Positions 12,871-52,078 of a stretch of DNA of 64,000 nt are shown piece after piece. Where the stretch lies: positions 1-64,000 of IMG/VR virus record IMGVR_UViG_3300027563_000002; one strand, given 5' to 3'. The notes beneath the pieces are model-generated. The model was not told the DNA's origin, made no database searches, and saw only the letters and a program-made list of their open reading frames with translations. This stretch comes from a virus. Its lineage: Duplodnaviria > Caudoviricetes. How positions within the stretch are numbered: position 1 is the first letter of the stretch; every line of letters begins with the position of its first letter. The translations under genes and the position numbers were made by a program.

Positions 12871-13673
12871 TTGATACCTCTTTGAGATAAGAAATTGATA
12901 TATCGAGCACGTTGCTGGTCTGACAGTTGTTGCCAGGCATTTCGATGTATGCTCACTGTGGTGGCCTGACACATCTCAGAAAATTTCCGATCAAATTCTG
13001 CCACCTCACTGTGACATAAATTACAAGGCACAATACTGGTGTGATCAACATCATAAATTTTATCAAATGATCCTTGGGAAAACAACACATATCCTGAATA
13101 CAGAATGAACTCAGTTATCATTCCTTGATCTTGAAACCAGTGTGCAAAATCTTGTTTGGTGCGTGACTGTATTTCTTGAATCATGTCATATACCAATTGA
13201 TTGTTCATCACAAAAGGCACACCACCGGGGCCCAGTTGATTTGATAAATCGATGTCAAACAGTTTGCTGACTAGTTGTTGACTGATTTTAAATACAGGAA
13301 ATATATCCAACAACCCTGTCTGCGGACGATCATGGTATTTTGGCACTGGGTTGACAAACAACGTTTTGGCATCCACGACCATGCTCCAGGTATTTTTGCC
13401 AAGAGCACAGGCCAGCAATTTCAAAAGTTGTTGAGTAAGCCATCCGTTTTCGGCGTAATCGACGGACCAACTGCTACGATGAATTATCTTTACACGATCT
13501 TTGAATTGTCCCCACCAAGCAGGATTCACATCATCGACGGTCATGCGGTCATCGTTGACAATCACAACAATGTCACCAAGGTCCATGTGTTGACAATACA
13601 ATTCCACACTTTGTGCCTGTAATTTCAGTGTGGGTAATTCGTCAAGAAATACCACAGTAACTAGATCCATCAT
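12867..13673 (-). CDS. DUF6492-like protein
   Basis: GWLTQQLLKL, VDAK, TEFILY. Confidence 0.55.
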   Translation of the reverse strand: MMDLVTVVFLDELPTLKLQAQSVELYCQHMDLGDIVVIVNDDRMTVDDVNPAWWGQFKDRVKIIHRSSWSVDYAENGWLTQQLLKLLACALGKNTWSMVVDAKTLFVNPVPKYHDRPQTGLLDIFPVFKISQQLVSKLFDIDLSNQLGPGGVPFVMNNQLVYDMIQEIQSRTKQDFAHWFQDQGMITEFILYSGYVLFSQGSFDKIYDVDHTSIVPCNLCHSEVAEFDRKFSEMCQATTVSIHRNAWQQLSDQQRARYINFLSQRGIK

Positions 13674-13715
13674 GACAATATTTAAGTGTTACAGCTCAGG
13701 CAATAATTTATATCA

Positions 13716-13792
13716 TGGGGTGCATGATGGGATTCGAACCCACGCATATCGGAATCACAATCCGAGGTCTTGACCGCTTGACGACACGCACC
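13716..13792 (-). tRNA. tRNA-His(GTG)
   Basis: TT-GTG-AT, G-1:C73. Confidence 0.9.
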
Positions 13793-13866
13793 ATATTGAA
13801 GCACACTCAACTTTCTGCCCTTGATTCACTACTGCTACTAGGGGCATGTTCTAATGTGCTTCAATA
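13793..13866 (-). ncRNA. long-stem inter-tRNA element
   Basis: perfect IR (CC)ATATTGAAGCACA/TGTGCTTCAATAT(GG). Confidence 0.45.
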
Positions 13867-13943
13867 TGGCGCGACCAGAAGGATTCGAACCTCCCACCCC
13901 TGCGTTCGTAGCACAGTGCTCTATCCAAATGAGCTATGGTCGC
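13867..13943 (-). tRNA. tRNA-Arg(ACG)
   Basis: CT-ACG-AA, CCA. Confidence 0.9.
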
Positions 13944-14727
13944 TGTTCAAATATGATTGAATTCTATTTGCAATAGTTTGTTGCAAGTTTAATTTAATCA
14001 TGCTATTTTCGTCTCCGTTGGCATAATGATATTGTTGAAATAAATCAATACAGTTAATACCATCTTTAAGAATTTTATCAAATACATCTATATTTTCTTG
14101 ATTCATATCACCAAATTTAACTATGGTCCATTTTATAGAAAAATGCGTTAGCACTTTAACAAGTTGTTCATAACTTTTTTTATGTTTTTTGCTGTGCCAG
14201 TCACGAGACTGGTTTGTTTGAAACTGTATCCTATGCAAGAGTTTTTGATGTACTTCAATGGGTGTTATACTGTGATTGATCAAAGATTCAAGATTTTTCT
14301 CAAAAAAGTATCTTTTATTTTCATATCTAAATGAACTTGACACATGTGGAAATGTAAAATCAGTTACTAACACATGATCTGGCATTCCTACTTCTTCAAT
14401 GTGCTGTAAAAGACGTTTGTGATATCCGGTAAAAGTAGCTCCGTTGAATGAACGATTTGTTACTTCGGCGTTCATCAAATTGGGCCAAGCTACTTTTAGC
14501 TCTTCCTCACGAAGATACGTCCACATGGCTGTCTCAATGTCTCGTGAAGATATTGGATCTAAATTATTATTTTTGCGCCTCCGAGCCAGGAACCACATTA
14601 TTGCCTTAGGCACATTTTCAGAATGAAAACGTAAACTCCATGAGCGAGGTAATGAATTACCTAAAACTTCATCGGCTAAACAGTTATTACCGTTACTTTG
14701 ACAATCCCCTAGCACTAGTATTTTCAT
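13921..14727 (-). CDS. AT-rich SGNH-like hypothetical protein inserted in tRNA array B
   Basis: LGDCQS N-terminus; 3' end overlaps tRNA-Arg by 23 nt. Confidence 0.6.
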   Translation of the reverse strand: MKILVLGDCQSNGNNCLADEVLGNSLPRSWSLRFHSENVPKAIMWFLARRRKNNNLDPISSRDIETAMWTYLREEELKVAWPNLMNAEVTNRSFNGATFTGYHKRLLQHIEEVGMPDHVLVTDFTFPHVSSSFRYENKRYFFEKNLESLINHSITPIEVHQKLLHRIQFQTNQSRDWHSKKHKKSYEQLVKVLTHFSIKWTIVKFGDMNQENIDVFDKILKDGINCIDLFQQYHYANGDENSMIKLNLQQTIANRIQSYLNSDHSSFG

Positions 14728-14834
14728 AACTTATGTATATAATTTATCACGTTGATAAAATTTTAGAAAGATTTGTACAATTGTCACTTCACTATTTAAA
14801 CTCCAATTGGGAATATCTAGTGACATCATAAACT

Positions 14835-14910
14835 TGGCGGTCCTAGGGGGTAACGATCCCCACTCTTACGGCGTGACAAGCCGTCGTGCGTCCATGAACA
14901 CTTTAGGACC
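14835..14910 (-). tRNA. tRNA-Asp(GTC)
   Basis: TT-GTC-AC, G73; T-loop ATCGTTA. Confidence 0.88.
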
Positions 14911-14916
14911 AAAAAT

Positions 14917-15002
14917 TGGTGGAGACGGATGGATTCGAACCACCGCGCTTTTTAGGGGCCAGATTTACAGTCTGGTGCAATCAACCACTCTGCCACGTCT
15001 CC
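14917..15002 (-). tRNA. tRNA-Tyr(GTA)
   Basis: CT-GTA-AA, long variable arm. Confidence 0.9.
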
Positions 15003-15010
15003 AAAAAAGA

Positions 15011-15076
15011 GTAAGGGCAAGGTTGCAGAGCCTAGTGTCCCAGACTGGGAGAAGTGCTCAGGCGATATGCCCTTAC
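15011..15076 (-). ncRNA. putative small structured RNA between tRNAs
   Basis: 9-bp IR GTAAGGGCA/TGCCCTTAC plus inner TCCCAG/CTGGGA hairpin. Confidence 0.4.
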
Positions 15077-15081
15077 AAAAA

Positions 15082-15156
15082 TGGTACACGATACGAGAAT
15101 CGAACTCGTCTTTCCGGCGTGAAAGGCCAGCGTCCTAACCGATAGACGAATCGTGC
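15082..15156 (-). tRNA. tRNA-Glu(TTC)
   Basis: CT-TTC-AC, CCA. Confidence 0.9.
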
Positions 15157-15160
15157 AAAT

Positions 15161-15395
15161 TACTATATGAAAATACATTAGGGAAGTTCTTGACACGCAT
15201 CACCAACTTGCATCAAGACCTCATTACGGGCCCAGTTGTTCCGCCGCCTTCCTGGAGTTTGTTATAGTTCTTGCCCTTTGACTCGATGGTGTCTCGTCAT
15301 ACTCTAGAACCCTCCTGCTTCATGGGTATCCGGTTCGCATCAACCTTCGTTCACCCCTAACGGACTAGGTAACCCTAATGTGTTTTCATATAGTA
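15161..15395 (-). ncRNA. about 235-nt putative ncRNA closed by a 23-bp stem
   Basis: 15161-15183 and 15373-15395 are inverted repeats with one mismatch; no ORF-track entry inside. Confidence 0.5.
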
Positions 15396-15488
15396 CCCTA
15401 TAACTAGACAGGGACTATATGACAATCGAAATTTTAACTAACCGGTCAACTAGTCTCGATCGACTGTGCTGTTTTCTAACTAGTCTCT

Positions 15489-15517
15489 AGTATAACACCT
15501 CTACCATTATTGGTCTA
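15489..15517 (-). promoter_or_regulatory. possible secondary promoter TAGACC-17-TATACT
   Basis: just downstream of terminator B. Confidence 0.45.
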
Positions 15518-15521
15518 GCAC

Positions 15522-15554
15522 AAAAAGAAAAACCCGCCTAGGTGGCGGGTTTTT
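15522..15554 (-). terminator. attenuator terminator of tRNA array B
   Basis: AAAAACCCGCC-ACCTA-GGCGGGTTTTTCTTTTT. Confidence 0.85.
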
Positions 15555-15574
15555 GCTTGAGTAGTACTTTTGTA

Positions 15575-15685
15575 TTAGGTACCACTGCTCCCGCTGTGTG
15601 TAGTATAGGCCAGCGCCTCACGACGATAATCATGTAGTTCGTGTGAGGGTATCTCAAAGGACAGTTGGGCGATTTGCTTAATCAT
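15575..15685 (-). CDS. 36-aa leader peptide B (MIKQIAQLSFEIPSHELHDYRREALAYTTHSGSSGT)
   Basis: ATG 5 nt after TATAAT; rich in E/H/D/Y/R; 3' codons can pair with the terminator 5' arm. Confidence 0.72.
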   Translation of the reverse strand: MIKQIAQLSFEIPSHELHDYRREALAYTTHSGSSGT

Positions 15686-15690
15686 AGTGT

Positions 15691-15719
15691 ATTATATATG
15701 ACAGTGAGTCAAAAGTCAA
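15691..15719 (-). promoter_or_regulatory. sigma70 promoter TTGACT-17-TATAAT driving leader B
   Basis: near-consensus. Confidence 0.85.
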
Positions 15720-15745
15720 TGATTTTCTAAACGTCTTTTACCGAT

Positions 15746-15937
15746 TCATGTTCTTCCGGGTGGAAGTTTTGTGGTACCCAGTTGACGTTCAAATGAACCA
15801 GGTCCGGCCAACTCAGGTGGCAAGGGTGGTGGAACATAGCGTTCCTTTGGCGGCTTTGAGCCAAATATGGATTGGTGTCGGTTGGCCAGTTCTTCCTGAC
15901 TGACCACTGACGGACGGGGTCGTGTGCCTTTGCTCAT
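15746..15937 (-). CDS. small hypothetical protein (MSKGTRPRP)
   Basis: GAGGAG SD. Confidence 0.65.
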   Translation of the reverse strand: MSKGTRPRPSVVSQEELANRHQSIFGSKPPKERYVPPPLPPELAGPGSFERQLGTTKLPPGRT

Positions 15938-15970
15938 GGTATCTCCTCAATAGTGTAGTATACACAAAGA

Positions 15971-16154
15971 CAAAAGGCCCGTCAAGGCCTTTTGGGTTGT
16001 TTCTGTTACGAGGTATTTCCTACCCTAGGCAGTGTTTAGGCTGCCAAAGCGAACTGTTCGTCGTTTGCATTTACGTTTTTTGCTTGATTAACGGTCATCG
16101 CCTACCGTGCTGTCCACTCTGGTACTTGTTGCCCTGTCGAAACTATGCAGGCCC
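15971..16154 (-). ncRNA. ssrA: tmRNA coding piece (permuted two-piece tmRNA)
   Basis: 5' GGGCCTG-CATAG-TTTCGAC; tag ANDEQFALAA* at 16068-16036; terminator hairpin 15971-15994. Confidence 0.9.
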
Positions 16155-16166
16155 ATCATAAAAAGT

Positions 16167-16427
16167 CTATTTCGAACAGTAAGTTTCCTTACAAGTCGAA
16201 CAAGAAATATCTAATAGTTTAATATCAAATACTTCCATTTCTAAATGCTTACAACACTTATCTTTACAGTTAGCACAATCTAAATTATCAAGTGCATCAT
16301 AAACACATTTAGTTTCTGAACAAAACATTCCTGTATTTCTATTAGGAAAGTTTCTACAACAACTAGGACGAGTTTCATAGATGCTACAAAGTTCATCAGC
16401 GTTTAAGTAAGGACAGCTTATACTCAT
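16167..16427 (-). CDS. Cys-rich YkgJ-like (Zn/Fe-chelating) protein inside the tmRNA intervening segment
   Basis: CPYL...CSIYETRPSCCRNFP and CxxCxxxCC; AT-rich; GAGG SD. Confidence 0.7.
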   Translation of the reverse strand: MSISCPYLNADELCSIYETRPSCCRNFPNRNTGMFCSETKCVYDALDNLDCANCKDKCCKHLEMEVFDIKLLDISCSTCKETYCSK

Positions 16428-16438
16428 TAGACCTCTTA

Positions 16439-16505
16439 TGGTGGACCTGGGGGGATTCGCACCCCCGTCCAGAACACTTTTCTCATCACTTCATACAGCA
16501 ATAAC
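16439..16505 (-). ncRNA. ssrA: tmRNA acceptor piece
   Basis: GGACGGGGGTGCGAATCCCCCCAGGTCCACCA; pairs with GGGCCTG to give G3-U70; 5' limit approximate. Confidence 0.88.
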
Positions 16506-16518
16506 TCTTATTTACCCT

Positions 16519-16992
16519 TTATTCACTGCTGGGCTCCTCGGCCACACGCCATCCCAGGATGGCCAAATCTGCGGCAATTTGGTCGGTAACATTGCCTTCA
16601 CCAACAAAGTTGCTGTCAGTCTTGTCGCCAATGCCTGAACAGTACCAGTTCATGTAGTCTTCGCCCACGTCTCTCAAATCAGCTACAAGCCCGCCAGCGT
16701 AACGCCAACTGCATGACCAGTAGGCATCTTTTAACACAAGCCAAACATCTTGTTTTTGGAAACTGTTGTTGCACAAGGCAGCATACAAGTTTTGTGCATA
16801 GTCATCACTGCCGCGCACTAGGCTCACAAACCAGTCGGCCTGGTTCATGTCATATTCCATGTTGTTGATTTTGAATTCATCAGACTGCTTACGCTCAGCC
16901 TCCATCTGGGCCCATTGGCCACGAAGGTCATCAAAGAAGTCGTCGTCTGTGCCTTCACTCTCATGCTGTGGTTCTATGGTGATGTTGCTCAT
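16519..16992 (-). CDS. hypothetical phage protein
   Basis: YAQNLYAALCN, WSCSWRYAGG; AAGGA SD. Confidence 0.75.
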   Translation of the reverse strand: MSNITIEPQHESEGTDDDFFDDLRGQWAQMEAERKQSDEFKINNMEYDMNQADWFVSLVRGSDDYAQNLYAALCNNSFQKQDVWLVLKDAYWSCSWRYAGGLVADLRDVGEDYMNWYCSGIGDKTDSNFVGEGNVTDQIAADLAILGWRVAEEPSSE

Positions 16993-17023
16993 GTCAGTTC
17001 CTTTGGTACTTATTGGTACTTAT

Positions 17024-17107
17024 TGGTACGAGTAACCGGAGTCGAACCGGTACGCCAATGGCGGCAGATTTTAAGTCTGCTGGGTCTACCTGTTCCCCCA
17101 TACTCGT
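17024..17107 (-). tRNA. tRNA-Leu(TAA)
   Basis: CT-TAA-AA, variable arm. Confidence 0.9.
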
Positions 17108-17121
17108 ATGCTGTTATTTAC

Positions 17122-17196
17122 TGGTCCGGCGTAGAGGAATCGAACCTCTATAATGACTTTAGAAGAATCATGTCCTATCCGTTGAACGAACGCCAG
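17122..17196 (-). tRNA. tRNA-Arg(TCT)
   Basis: CT-TCT-AA. Confidence 0.88.
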
Positions 17197-17202
17197 ATTG
17201 TT

Positions 17203-17279
17203 TGGTGGGCCGTCGGTGATTCGAACACCGCACCAAAGGATTATGAGTCCTCTGCTCTAACCGAATGAGCTAACGGCCC
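17203..17279 (-). tRNA. tRNA-Ile2(CAT, lysidine type)
   Basis: GGGCC...TAGCTCA..GGTTAGAGCA..GACTCATAATC resembles bacterial ileX. Confidence 0.8.
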
Positions 17280-17303
17280 TACATGTGTATTGTAACAGGA
17301 ATT

Positions 17304-17684
17304 TTATTTATAGTCAACAGTGCCGTCTGCCAGGTGGTCCTGTTTGATTTCTTTCACAGCATGTCCCAAAATGGATGCTACAGAATTTTTGTAGGCAATG
17401 CGTTGATTGTTGAAATCTCTGATGGCAATGGCTCGTCGCCCAATCTCCTGGAGACTCAACATTTGTTCTACACCGCTTTTGAGTTGCCATTCCAGGTCCC
17501 AAATGGCATGGTGAATATCAGTCATGGCCTGAATCACTTGATCCAATTCTGAGCTTTGGGACAGTTGTTGATACTTGTCCTCGTACCAATCAAGTTCAAC
17601 TTGATTTGCACCTTGGGTCCTGGCGTGTTTTACTCTGGCAATGCAGAGTCTATCGATCAGTTCTAATACTGGTAAGAATTCCAT
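17304..17684 (-). CDS. hypothetical helical protein
   Basis: ELIDRLCI..., WDLE; TTGACA-17-TATAAT at 17714-17742. Confidence 0.7.
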   Translation of the reverse strand: MEFLPVLELIDRLCIARVKHARTQGANQVELDWYEDKYQQLSQSSELDQVIQAMTDIHHAIWDLEWQLKSGVEQMLSLQEIGRRAIAIRDFNNQRIAYKNSVASILGHAVKEIKQDHLADGTVDYK

Positions 17685-49421: not shown

Positions 49422-52078
49422 TCAAAAGAAAATAAAGAATTAAAAGTGTTTTCAGTATTGGTAGCTGAGGCCAAGTCCCAATCCAACACTCCCAACAAGT
49501 TGTCAATCTTTTGATCCACCACTGTGGCCTCCATCTCTGCGTCGTCAAACGGCAAGTCCTTGAACCACTGTGGCAAGTGCATCTCGTCTGTGGGATAGCC
49601 AATGCTGGTCCAGCCCAAGGCATTGCTTCTTAACTTGCACACAATGGTCTTCATGCCGTCCACAATCTGCATTGAGTAGTTGTCCGAATTCATTCGTCTC
49701 AAGTTGTTCCAGTTCAAGGCCGCCCGTACATGCCCAGGCATGTTGGCTTTGCCCAGGCGTTCTTCTTCCCGACCGTACTTGGTCAAGTTGTTCACACGCT
49801 TGGGAGAGCCTTTTTCCCAGCCCGGCCGTTCTTTGAATTCATACTTGAACTCGCGCACACGTTCAATGATTTCATCGCGACCAGCGCCGGCCAGTGCTTT
49901 ATTTAGAATTTCCAACAGAAAGTCTTGAATAACTTTGGGTGTGTCACTGCGTTTTAGATCCAGGCCAGTGGCCTTGGTCTTGCCGATTGCTCCGTTCACA
50001 TCCAGGCGCTTGTTTTCAATATCAATGGCGTTGACAGCATAGCGTTTTTTGGTGATGAACAAGCCACGGTCTGCCACAGTTTCACGACCGGCCTTGATCA
50101 ATTCGCCCATGTCTCTGGGACAATGAAAAGCACGTTCCATAAAGCTCGGAAATGATTCATTCACTTGGTCAGCAATTGAGTCGTACAGCTGGATGCAAAT
50201 TTCTTTTGACCATGCCATACGACCTTCGGCAACTTCCTGCTTGAGCACAGGCCAGGCACTGAAGTAGCATGAGTCTGTGTCACCATAGATAACTGCCTTG
50301 CCCATATGATCATACTCACCTGTGATGCATTCATTCAGGTATGCATCCATGTGCCGGGCAATGCTGCGGCCTGTCAGTGTTGTGCTCTGTCCAATGCGCT
50401 TGTCAAAAAATCTGCAGCCAGAATTGAGAATGGCGCCATACAGACTGTTCAAGTTAATCTTCTTGACCAGTTGACGTTTGTCCCAGAACGCAATCTCTTT
50501 GGCATCCCGGGCATCTTTCTTCTTGGCCTGTAATTCTTGACGTTCACGATACCAACGTTCCAGCAGACCTGGAATCACACCTTTCTTTTCGTATGTGAAT
50601 ATGGTTCCATTGGCGCTCAAAATCCAAGGTTGATTAGAGTCAAACAACATGTACCAAATTTCAGCGCCTGAGTGTACAGTCTCTTCACCTGACTGCCAGT
50701 CTATGGTGATCTCTGTGCCACGTTGCTGTTCCATCACTGCTGTGTATTCCAAACTGGCAAACACACCTTCCCAGGCCGCTGCAAATGAATCACCCCGAGC
50801 CATTTTATCTTTGATGTATCGATCAGTCATCACAGGACGCAGTTGACCAATGATGGTTTCTGGACCCATGTTCAAGGCACGAATCGCTGATGGATACAGA
50901 CTGTTGATGTCCACTGATCCCACCCACTCGTGCATGCCCTTGCGTGGATATGCCACATAAGCACCTGCGGCCTGTGTGTCCTCGTCGGTGAGTCGTTGTT
51001 GACGATTGGGCACAACCATGCCGCGTTCGTGTGCTTCGTTGATGATGGCCTGTTCGGTCACGGCCACAGCACCCATGGTGGTGGCCAACAACACAGTATT
51101 GGCATGCGCCAGTTCGCTGGCCAGTTCCAGGAAGCGCAGTTTTTTGTCCAGTTTGTCCAGCAACAAGGTATCTTGCCTGTTGTATTCGATAAAGGTCCTG
51201 AAGTATTGGTTGTACAACTGATCCAGTGTGCCTTCAAACTGTGTCTTGCGCTCACTCAGTTCGTACTCGGCAATGGCATCCAGGCTGTAGCTATGTCGTT
51301 CTTCATAGGTGTATTTGCGATACAGTTGCATATAGTCCATATGCACACGACCCACCAGGTCATAGGTTTCGTTTTCAGCACCAAAACGTTCAAACACACG
51401 CTTCTTGGGAAACTGCCCCCATAAACAAAATCTGCGTGTGTCGTCTTTGCTGAGCACTCGAGTGATACGATTCACTGTGTAGGGTATGTCATAGCCTTCT
51501 GAGTTCCAACCGCTCAAGATATCTGCATCTTCGATCAGATCCAAGAACATCTTCAACATTTCTGTTTCGGATTCACACAGCACAGTGTTCTCAAATTCTC
51601 CACAGATCTCACGAGCAGTCTGCTCACTCATATGGCGCGGCGCCACCACCAGTGTGACCAATTGCTCCAACCAATTCAAATATACCGATATGGCAGTGAT
51701 GGGATTGAAAGGATCTGACACAGGCGAAAATCCACGCACTGAATCGAATGCAACTTCAATGTCAAAGAATGCTGTGTGCAAGGTGGGGGCATCTTGGTCC
51801 TTGTAGTTTTCTTCAAAGCAACGGAATATGGGATTGATATCCGATTCGTAGATCTGTCGACCGCTTTGTGCTCGAACTTCCTTGCGGAACTCTTTGTTGT
51901 TGCGTGATGAAAATCTTGACACAGGTGTGCCGTAGATGCTTTGGAACTTGCCTCGGGGGTCGTCGTAGTAGAACACATAATTGGCAGGATACTCCCGATA
52001 CTGCCTTTGGCCGTCGCGGCGTTCTACCACGTGAATGCGATCATGCTCACGATCAAATAGTGCGTCAATATAACTCAA
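49418..52078 (-). CDS. family B DNA polymerase (gp43-like)
   Basis: FDIE, WNSEGYD, YNRQD exonuclease; DINSLYPS, KINLNSLYG, YGDTDS, KKRY; TTG start. Confidence 0.97.
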   Translation of the reverse strand: MSYIDALFDREHDRIHVVERRDGQRQYREYPANYVFYYDDPRGKFQSIYGTPVSRFSSRNNKEFRKEVRAQSGRQIYESDINPIFRCFEENYKDQDAPTLHTAFFDIEVAFDSVRGFSPVSDPFNPITAISVYLNWLEQLVTLVVAPRHMSEQTAREICGEFENTVLCESETEMLKMFLDLIEDADILSGWNSEGYDIPYTVNRITRVLSKDDTRRFCLWGQFPKKRVFERFGAENETYDLVGRVHMDYMQLYRKYTYEERHSYSLDAIAEYELSERKTQFEGTLDQLYNQYFRTFIEYNRQDTLLLDKLDKKLRFLELASELAHANTVLLATTMGAVAVTEQAIINEAHERGMVVPNRQQRLTDEDTQAAGAYVAYPRKGMHEWVGSVDINSLYPSAIRALNMGPETIIGQLRPVMTDRYIKDKMARGDSFAAAWEGVFASLEYTAVMEQQRGTEITIDWQSGEETVHSGAEIWYMLFDSNQPWILSANGTIFTYEKKGVIPGLLERWYRERQELQAKKKDARDAKEIAFWDKRQLVKKINLNSLYGAILNSGCRFFDKRIGQSTTLTGRSIARHMDAYLNECITGEYDHMGKAVIYGDTDSCYFSAWPVLKQEVAEGRMAWSKEICIQLYDSIADQVNESFPSFMERAFHCPRDMGELIKAGRETVADRGLFITKKRYAVNAIDIENKRLDVNGAIGKTKATGLDLKRSDTPKVIQDFLLEILNKALAGAGRDEIIERVREFKYEFKERPGWEKGSPKRVNNLTKYGREEERLGKANMPGHVRAALNWNNLRRMNSDNYSMQIVDGMKTIVCKLRSNALGWTSIGYPTDEMHLPQWFKDLPFDDAEMEATVVDQKIDNLLGVLDWDLASATNTENTFNSLFSFE

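Follow-up and report, generated by a model that had tools for sequence, protein, structure and literature searches.

The window analysed here covers the first 64 kb of an IMG/VR virus record of 110 kb, the estimated completeness of which is about one-third, and contains 27 tRNA genes, all of which lie on the minus strand. Element B is composed of a promoter, a short open reading frame (ORF), a set of hairpins and an intrinsic terminator, and is located between the tmRNA region and five of these genes that form a group (array B). On balance, we favour the interpretation that element B is a working ribosome-mediated attenuator tuned to the tRNAs that it gates, a reading for which there are no expression data. 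The parts of the element, their conservation, the translation signature of the ORF, hairpins P1 and P3, and the match between leader codons and tRNAs are shown by the sequence and by comparison with relatives. The transcription start, ribosome stalling, the switch itself and its physiological trigger are inferred, in the absence of expression data and for an uncultured phage. The features of the element and of the downstream array are the following:

15691-15719, minus strand: leader promoter P_L, TTGACT-17-TATAAT, with 11/12 consensus matches in a pattern scan
15575-15685, minus strand: leader ORF B, 36 codons followed by TAA, MIKQIAQLSFEIPSHELHDYRREALAYTTHSGSSGT
15616-15648, minus strand: hairpin P1, CCUCAC (15648-15643) paired with GUGAGG (15621-15616)
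15617-15643, minus strand: control-codon cluster, CAC GAA CTA CAT GAT TAT CGT CGT GAG, encoding HELHDYRRE
15592-15615, minus strand: hairpin P2, the anti-antiterminator, CGCUG (15615-15611) paired with CAGCG (15596-15592)
15590-15594, minus strand: GCGGG, the 5′ strand of the antiterminator (region 2), invariant including the synonymous third base of GGG
15560-15586, minus strand: hairpin P3, AGUGGUAC/GUACUACU, the inner helix of the bipartite antiterminator
15522-15554, minus strand: intrinsic terminator, an 11-bp stem (15554-15528) with a 5-nt loop, followed by UUUUUCUUUUU
15489-15517, minus strand: promoter 2, TAGACC-17-TG-n-TATACT, with an extended -10 box and a predicted start near 15482
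13716-15156, minus strand: tRNA array B, five tRNA genes and an inserted ORF
15156-15082, minus strand: tRNA-Glu(ttc), array B
15002-14917, minus strand: tRNA-Tyr(gta), array B
14910-14835, minus strand: tRNA-Asp(gtc), array B
13943-13867, minus strand: tRNA-Arg(acg), array B
13791-13716, minus strand: tRNA-His(gtg), array B

The element B unit is present in 35 distinct relatives from viral and metagenome contigs, at approximately 85-89% identity, so that together with the window 36 copies could be compared. The relatives were gathered through a neighbouring 157-aa protein, two DNA patterns (viral contigs) and one pattern (metagenome contigs); two further pattern matches (L089 and L091) were dropped as chance matches in GC-rich coding DNA. 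The P_L hexamers, TTGACT or TTGACA together with TATAAT, occur in 36/36 distinct copies, and the spacer between them is always 17 nt long, yet it is represented by 21 different sequences. The ORF is intact in all 36 copies, with a length of 31-36 codons. Its indels, which fall in three places and result from at least six events, are all multiples of three (9, 6 and 3 nt), and 1-nt indels are found just outside the ORF. An intact frame with only in-frame indels is the signature of a translated frame, and translation of leader B is inferred on this basis. Peptide positions outside the RNA stems vary freely (I/N at position 2, N/L/Y/F/H/I at position 5, and a variable C-terminal part), which fits a role for the act of translation rather than for the peptide product. 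No Pfam match was found for the leader B peptide. When four-fold degenerate sites were compared in the same nine genomes, 9/11 were invariant in the leader versus 6/27 in the neighbouring 157-aa gene (Fisher p=0.0011), and the two varying leader sites are those of a compensating base pair in P1. Leader B is thus constrained as RNA besides being read as codons.

Leader codons 7-14 (15667-15644, minus strand) are invariant at the nucleotide level in the 35 relatives, four-fold sites included. They lie outside the modelled hairpins, and the attenuator model offers no reason for their invariance. RNAalifold placed a long-range partner of this region at 15561-15554, without covariation.

The ATG of leader B is located 6 nt past the -10 box and is not preceded by a Shine-Dalgarno sequence. 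We infer from the sequence that the leader B mRNA is leaderless, with the RNA starting at or next to the AUG; the start has not been mapped, and a start only 2 nt further downstream would exclude the AUG. Neighbouring genes do carry Shine-Dalgarno sequences, for example GAGGAG before a 63-aa ORF.

An earlier note on this region, made without database searches, had described the leader as rich in E, H, D, Y and R. This part did not hold for the peptide as a whole, in which 11/36 residues belong to these types versus a background of 25% (p=0.27), so that there is no overall enrichment. Instead, the cognate residues are clustered, and it is the HELHDYRRE cluster with its H-D-Y-R-E core that stands out. 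The minimal and commonest form of the cluster, CAT GAT TAT CGT GAG (His-Asp-Tyr-Arg-Glu), provides one codon for each tRNA identity behind the terminator (Glu, Tyr, Asp, Arg, His), and the core His-Asp-Tyr-(x)-Arg-Glu is present in all copies except one that lacks Asp. Based on the amino-acid frequencies of the long ORFs of this phage, the probability that a random 31-aa peptide holds a 5-mer permutation of E/H/D/Y/R is 8-9e-4, and the probability of at least five consecutive cognate residues in a peptide of that length is 0.02. The Arg codons of the core are CGT or CGC, which are read by tRNA-Arg(ACG) of the array; AGA/AGG codons occur only in the variable tail. Lineage-specific insertions in the cluster consist mostly of cognate codons (Arg; His-Glu-Leu; His-Asp-Leu; Glu-Ser) and also of Thr or Ala, resemble local duplications and carry little evidential weight. 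When viral contigs were searched with an exact degenerate pattern of the peptide HELHDYRRE, there was no match; the nine-codon cluster of the window is unique, with shorter or different versions in the relatives.

In most relatives with contigs that reach far enough, the array has the order Glu-Tyr-Asp-(sometimes one extra tRNA)-Arg(acg)-His-Met. The array differs in two relatives, L092 and L115; that of L092 lacks tRNA-Tyr, yet its leader keeps Tyr codons. Since the relatives are close and have the same tRNA set, co-variation of leader and array cannot be assessed within the family. More distant relatives of the 157-aa protein (L024-L075) have no tRNAs nearby and are unusable for this purpose. 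No cultured phage with element B was found in a DNA search with 13600-17400, in which only tRNA-Tyr genes matched, and a protein search of cultured relatives with the 157-aa protein gave no match.

Hairpins P1, P2 and P3 were found with ViennaRNA for the window and with RNAalifold for the alignment; RNAalifold recovered them unaided, together with the terminator. The leader region folds better than its shuffles (z=-3.98). In P1, the loop and the 3′ arm contain the control codons. At its pair 47:71, 26 copies have A-U, 6 have G-C and 3 have G-U, and the pair is never broken; both changes are synonymous (TCA to TCG and CGT to CGC). The arms of P3 correspond to the DNA motifs AGTGGTAC (15586-15579, minus strand) and GTACTACT (15567-15560, minus strand), which form eight pairs, one of them G-U, and the TAA stop codon (15577-15575) is located in the P3 loop. 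Of the copies, 28 have G-C, 5 have A-U and 2 have G-U at pair 106:130 of P3, and three have a single C-A mismatch in P3. Compensatory changes with G-U intermediates are seen in P1 and P3, at one pair each. The P2 stem is invariant in 35 copies, with a loop that varies in sequence and length, and the terminator stem is likewise invariant in 35 copies, with a variable loop. Because P2, the outer antiterminator helix and the terminator stem are all invariant, covariation neither supports nor tests the switch itself. A long-range helix of nt 28-38 with nt 130-137, proposed by RNAalifold, competes with the outer pairs of P3 and was not adopted, because the double change at 106:130 favours P3.

The alternative structures are formed around region 2. 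P2 (-7.0 kcal/mol) sequesters three bases of GCGGG. When free, GCGGG (15594-15590) can form five G-C pairs with CCCGC (15549-15545), which is the core of the 5′ arm of the terminator (region 3). The combined antiterminator hairpin has an energy of -14.4 kcal/mol, or -16.2 kcal/mol with two extra G-C pairs, which corresponds to an increment of -6.8 or -8.6 kcal/mol, respectively, atop P3. P2 and this increment are thus predicted to be balanced. P2 and the antiterminator are mutually exclusive through the overlap of CAGCG and GCGGG, and the antiterminator excludes the terminator through CCCGC; P3 can coexist with the terminator, and competition is limited to the five outer base pairs of the antiterminator. 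The terminator stem-loop, AAAAACCCGCC-ACCUA-GGCGGGUUUUU, has an energy of -17.4 kcal/mol and, judged by fold energies, wins at equilibrium. The antiterminator becomes the minimum-energy fold once nt 1-69 to 1-84 are masked and the 3′ arm of the terminator is absent. With shorter masks, a relay hairpin, AGGC/GCCU, removes the 5′ arm of P2 from play in the predicted fold, and masking to nt 78-84 frees region 2.

The position of the Tyr, Arg and Glu codons relative to P2 is compatible with this arrangement. The 5′ arm of P2 starts 1-10 nt past the Glu, Arg and Tyr codons. Under the assumption that approximately 12 nt are protected 3′ of the A site, a ribosome stalled at a Tyr, Arg or Glu codon would mask the 5′ arm of P2, and one stalled at Asp would abut it. 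From the His codons and the extra His-Glu-Leu of this copy, which are located further upstream, a stalled ribosome would not reach P2 unless the relay hairpin came into play. Disruption of P2 by a stalled ribosome is therefore a prediction of the model that is supported by geometry only.

In the mechanism that we propose, a ribosome-mediated leader-peptide attenuator gates read-through from the strong P_L into the phage tRNA array. RNA polymerase would start at P_L, producing an RNA that begins at or next to the AUG. In the absence of a ribosome on the leader, P1, P2 and P3 would fold, P2 would hold GCGGG, and the terminator would form, ending transcription at ∼15528. An unhindered ribosome that reaches the TAA in the P3 loop would cover both GCGGG and P3, again allowing termination. 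When the cognate charged tRNAs are scarce, the ribosome would stall within the His-Asp-Tyr-Arg-Glu cluster, open P1, and cover or displace the 5′ arm of P2; stalls further upstream may act through the relay hairpin AGGC/GCCU. The freed GCGGG would then form a helix with CCCGC in the 5′ arm of the terminator, stacked on P3, and the terminator would be blocked, so that the polymerase would continue into tRNA-Glu, Tyr, Asp, Arg and His. The new tRNAs would relieve the stall, resulting in negative feedback on tRNA supply, and the weaker promoter 2 would set the basal level.

No further terminator was found on the minus strand between 15528 and 13716 in a pattern scan. Promoter 2 is conserved in the relatives with a fixed 17-nt spacer, and its variants (TTGACC in one copy, TACAAT in another) retain promoter character. 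It is predicted from its sequence to be weaker than the near-consensus P_L. A conserved promoter between the terminator and the tRNAs means that transcription of the array does not depend on read-through. Promoter 2 is inferred, only from its sequence, to supply transcription that bypasses the attenuator, to which read-through from the much stronger P_L would add. Two copies of the direct repeat GAGACTAGTT lie 30 nt apart on the minus strand (at 15487-15478 and at 15457-15448), beginning at the predicted start of promoter 2, and are conserved in the relatives; the repeat could be a repressor operator, as in the Anabaena trn operon, or a structure at the 5′ end of the precursor.

The criteria for a leader-peptide attenuator that are met by element B are the presence of a promoter, a short ORF, a terminator before the regulated genes, a 1:2 hairpin and cognate codons, with translation being inferred from frame conservation and the 1:2 criterion resting on geometry only. 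With respect to the antiterminator criterion, GCGGG pairs with CCCGC on P3 in masked folds, but this helix is invariant, and when nt 82-136 were shuffled with the rest kept, antiterminator-type pairing arose in 13% of shuffles. The full topology, in which the partners are also sequestered when the leader is untranslated, was obtained in 7.5% of the same shuffles. With a switch-like topology in 7.5-13% of shuffles, the in silico switch alone is weak evidence, and it is conservation, together with the translation signature and the codon match, that carries the case for element B as an attenuator. The criterion on the regulated genes is not fulfilled, as these are tRNA genes and not genes for amino-acid biosynthesis, transport or synthetases. 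Together with the lack of a match to Rfam models, this indicates that element B is not a member of any described attenuator family. Our assessment nevertheless leans towards element B working like a multivalent trp/his-type attenuator.

Most of what the earlier note had proposed agrees with these results. Its four motifs, GCGGG, CCCGC and the two arms of P3, are found on the minus strand where it had placed them and pair as it described, and its bipartite antiterminator excludes the terminator, with the nuance given above that P3 coexists with the terminator. The sensing codons lie upstream of the switch segment, as claimed, and the conserved core does so in the relatives as well. Two further claims, that the geometry is the same as in attenuator A and that the antiterminator is weaker than that of A, also held. 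The TAGACC-17-TATACT sequence that had been suggested as a source of basal transcription is present (15517-15489) and conserved; basal transcription from it is inferred. Covariation in homologs, which had been suggested as a check, is seen in P1 and P3 and is uninformative for the invariant switch helices. Regions 2-4 had been covered, but P1 and P2 had not, and it is P1 and P2 that make the switch ribosome-dependent and complete the four-region logic of the trp type. The structural claims and the comparative data thus agree in supporting that interpretation, given the conserved promoter, the ORF with in-frame indels, the core, the terminator and the same five tRNAs in the relatives; function is inferred without expression data.

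Two alternative explanations survive to some degree, although we consider both unlikely. In the first, P_L and the terminator delimit a self-contained unit around the 36-codon ORF, either a small gene or a dual-function small RNA, whose peptide or RNA product acts elsewhere; promoter 2 alone drives the array, and leader codons and tRNAs match by coincidence. This would be consistent with the conserved promoter directly behind the terminator, the conserved central peptide QLSFEIPSHDYREALAY, the strong terminator that wins at equilibrium and a switch topology that is not rare by chance. Arguing against it are the conservation at the nucleotide level, including four-fold sites, which is unexpected for a protein gene, the radical variation of peptide positions outside the RNA stems, the lack of a protein family match, and the H-D-Y-R-E match (p ∼1e-3), a pattern that recurs in leader A and in phiCbK (see below). 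In the second, the element is an attenuator without codon specificity: the switch is set by an RNA-binding protein of the phage or host, or general translation stress is sensed and not the supply of the five cognate tRNAs. In favour of this reading, proteins could bind to hairpins P1-P3 and to the invariant codons 7-14, the translation-stress-induced tRNA array of Anabaena uses a repressor (PMC8421152, PMC10272220), and Ala and Leu codons beside the cluster would trigger the switch too. However, in-frame insertions of 3-9 nt are tolerated in the loop of P1, which argues against recognition of a specific sequence by a protein, and both the ORF and its reading frame are strictly maintained. In addition, P1 and P2 would stay folded if the ribosome stalled before the cluster, so that the narrow effective window is the one that holds the cognate codons. 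A chance arrangement, in which the ordinary terminator of the upstream 63-aa gene (15937-15746) is accompanied by an accidental promoter-like sequence and open frame, is compatible with the lack of a terminator between that ORF and the leader and with promoter-like matches in the region that are not more numerous than in shuffles (16 versus a mean of 13.4), but it is all but excluded by hexamers, 17-nt spacing, frame, hairpins and terminator that are kept in 35 relatives while spacers and loops vary, and by the covariation and synonymous-site constraint.

The attenuator reading of element B can be compared with a second leader in the same window. Leader A (8337-8227) is a 36-codon ORF conserved in relatives; array A covers 16 amino-acid types, to which 35/36 residues of this leader are cognate (p=0.004). 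The antiterminator of leader A comprises a comparable outer helix and an inner hairpin that overlaps the stop codon, and it is stronger than that of B. The absence of Asp, Glu, His and Tyr from leader A is true only of the window copy, as residue 33 is Glu or Asp in most relatives, and the weaker statistic of 35/36 cognate residues was used because of this variation.

The same architecture of promoter, mini-ORF, terminator and tRNA genes is found in the cultured Caulobacter phage phiCbK. Its record (JX100813) annotates terminators directly before three tRNA blocks. Block 3 (tRNA Phe, Val, Ile, Ile, Val, Gln, Gln) is preceded by TTGACA-17-TAGGGT and, 7 nt later, by the ATG of a leaderless 32-codon ORF, MSKTYRQFVRQIQVVRNIRAGRSRMADEGFRD (L123:4500-4710, corresponding to JX100813 51299-51509). 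This ORF, which contains ...QFVRQIQVVRNI..., is rich in Gln, Phe, Val and Ile, and GGGCGGGCC inside it is complementary to the 5′ arm of the terminator (51465-51502). Blocks 1 and 2, which are less clear matches than block 3, were not counted: block 1 has the ORF MTHLLTRYEREATGLDTTTA before Glu/Asp, and block 2 has gp083 before Pro/Lys/Leu/Ser, in which Ser, Leu, Pro and Lys are abundant, as are Ala and Thr. Neither leaders nor attenuation are mentioned in the paper on the phiCbK genome. A bolder reading is that unrelated large phages (this uncultured family and the phiCbK-like Caulobacter phages) run a tRNA-supply homeostat, in which each tRNA block is placed behind a leaderless mini-ORF written in its own codons and wired to a terminator switch; we regard this as slightly more likely to be right than wrong. 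If it were true, tRNA depletion, whether caused by the codon demand of the phage, host shut-off or tRNA-cleaving defence nucleases, would directly induce replacement tRNAs.

Among known systems, the amino-acid operon attenuators (trpL, hisL, pheL and leuL of E. coli/Salmonella, thrL and ilvGMEDA) resemble element B in having a promoter and a short ORF with control codons, alternative 1:2, 2:3 and 3:4 pairings (predicted in the case of element B) that end in an intrinsic terminator, and a stop codon placed so that an unhindered ribosome blocks region 2. The thr and ilv leaders also contain several different control amino acids. In contrast, the genes behind element B encode tRNAs instead of biosynthetic enzymes or synthetases, which would make tRNA supply the signal and close the loop on the tRNAs themselves. 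It further differs in having one codon of each kind and no runs, an mRNA inferred to be leaderless, a weak bipartite antiterminator and a second promoter behind the terminator. Searches with the Rfam leader families (His, Trp, Phe, Thr, Leu) and the T-box gave no hits at gathering thresholds; the Phe, Thr and Leu leader models reached 19-21 bits versus cut-offs of 50-55 bits and covered only the terminator. T-box riboswitches, for which no match was found in the window, likewise act by transcription attenuation, in response to the state of one specific tRNA. They bind uncharged tRNA through a specifier codon and need no translation, whereas element B has a conserved ORF that is inferred to be translated.

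Leaderless short-ORF attenuators are described for mycobacterial polycysteine ORFs (bioRxiv 10.1101/834739) and for leader peptides of Deinococcus deserti (PMC4007540). As inferred for leader B, the leader ORFs of Actinobacteria and Deinococcus lack a Shine-Dalgarno sequence and begin where the transcript begins, and their codons report the supply of specific aminoacyl-tRNAs. They control cellular amino-acid-related operons, whereas element B belongs to a phage, in which other genes, unlike leader B, carry Shine-Dalgarno sequences, and is located before tRNA genes. The nearest published system that we found is the trn operon of Anabaena sp. PCC 7120, an extra tRNA block that, as proposed for array B, is expressed when translation is impaired (PMC8421152). 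Its control is exerted at the promoter, through 9-nt direct repeats and the repressor TrcR, and the text of that paper mentions no leader, attenuator or terminator. Leader-peptide or attenuator control of tRNA genes, tRNA operons or phage tRNAs is not described in the literature that was searched, which mostly did not include subscription journals.

Phage tRNA genes are usually discussed as codon supplements. More recently, they have been viewed as a counter to host tRNA-cleaving defences (PMC10264068, PMC11555353). To our knowledge, control of their expression is largely undescribed. If the attenuator reading is correct, a tRNA-gene attenuator would extend the trp/his logic from amino-acid supply to tRNA supply and would provide the phage with a self-correcting sensor of decoding speed; it would also predict which of the tRNAs run short during infection.

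Several further observations concern the surroundings of element B. In the spacer between promoter 2 and tRNA-Glu (15430-15157, minus strand), for which no Rfam match was found, conserved complementary segments, CTATATG-AAACAC... and ...GTGTTT-CATATAG, flank an insert of highly variable length. The spacer measures 207 to >600 nt in the relatives, and 1236 nt in one of them. Its fold has a z-score of -2.25, and it may represent a processing stem or an unknown RNA. Within the array, a 268-aa ORF (14727-13921, minus strand) without a Pfam match is inserted between tRNA-Asp and tRNA-Arg, with its 3′ end overlapping tRNA-Arg by 23 nt; in the relatives, the gap between these two tRNA genes is too small for this ORF. 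In two relatives (L076 and L094), this position is occupied by an extra tRNA with a CUA anticodon (labelled Pyl by ARAGORN), which is predicted to be amber-suppressor-like; elsewhere among the relatives, the extra tRNA at this place is Ile(aat) or Leu(tag).

A third tRNA group, Met-Arg(tct)-Leu(taa) (17024-17317, minus strand), has a promoter, TTGACT-17-TACAAT, directly upstream and neither a leader ORF nor a terminator, and thus not every tRNA block in this phage is gated. On the other side of element B from array B, a circularly permuted two-piece tmRNA is located at 16036-16500 (minus strand). Its intervening segment contains an 86-aa Cys-rich ORF (16427-16167) that matches Pfam CxxCxxCC (PF03692). 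The tag encoded by the tmRNA of the window is ANDEQFALAA, and its variants in the relatives are ANDSVYSLAA, ANDEKFLMAA and ANDSQFALAA.
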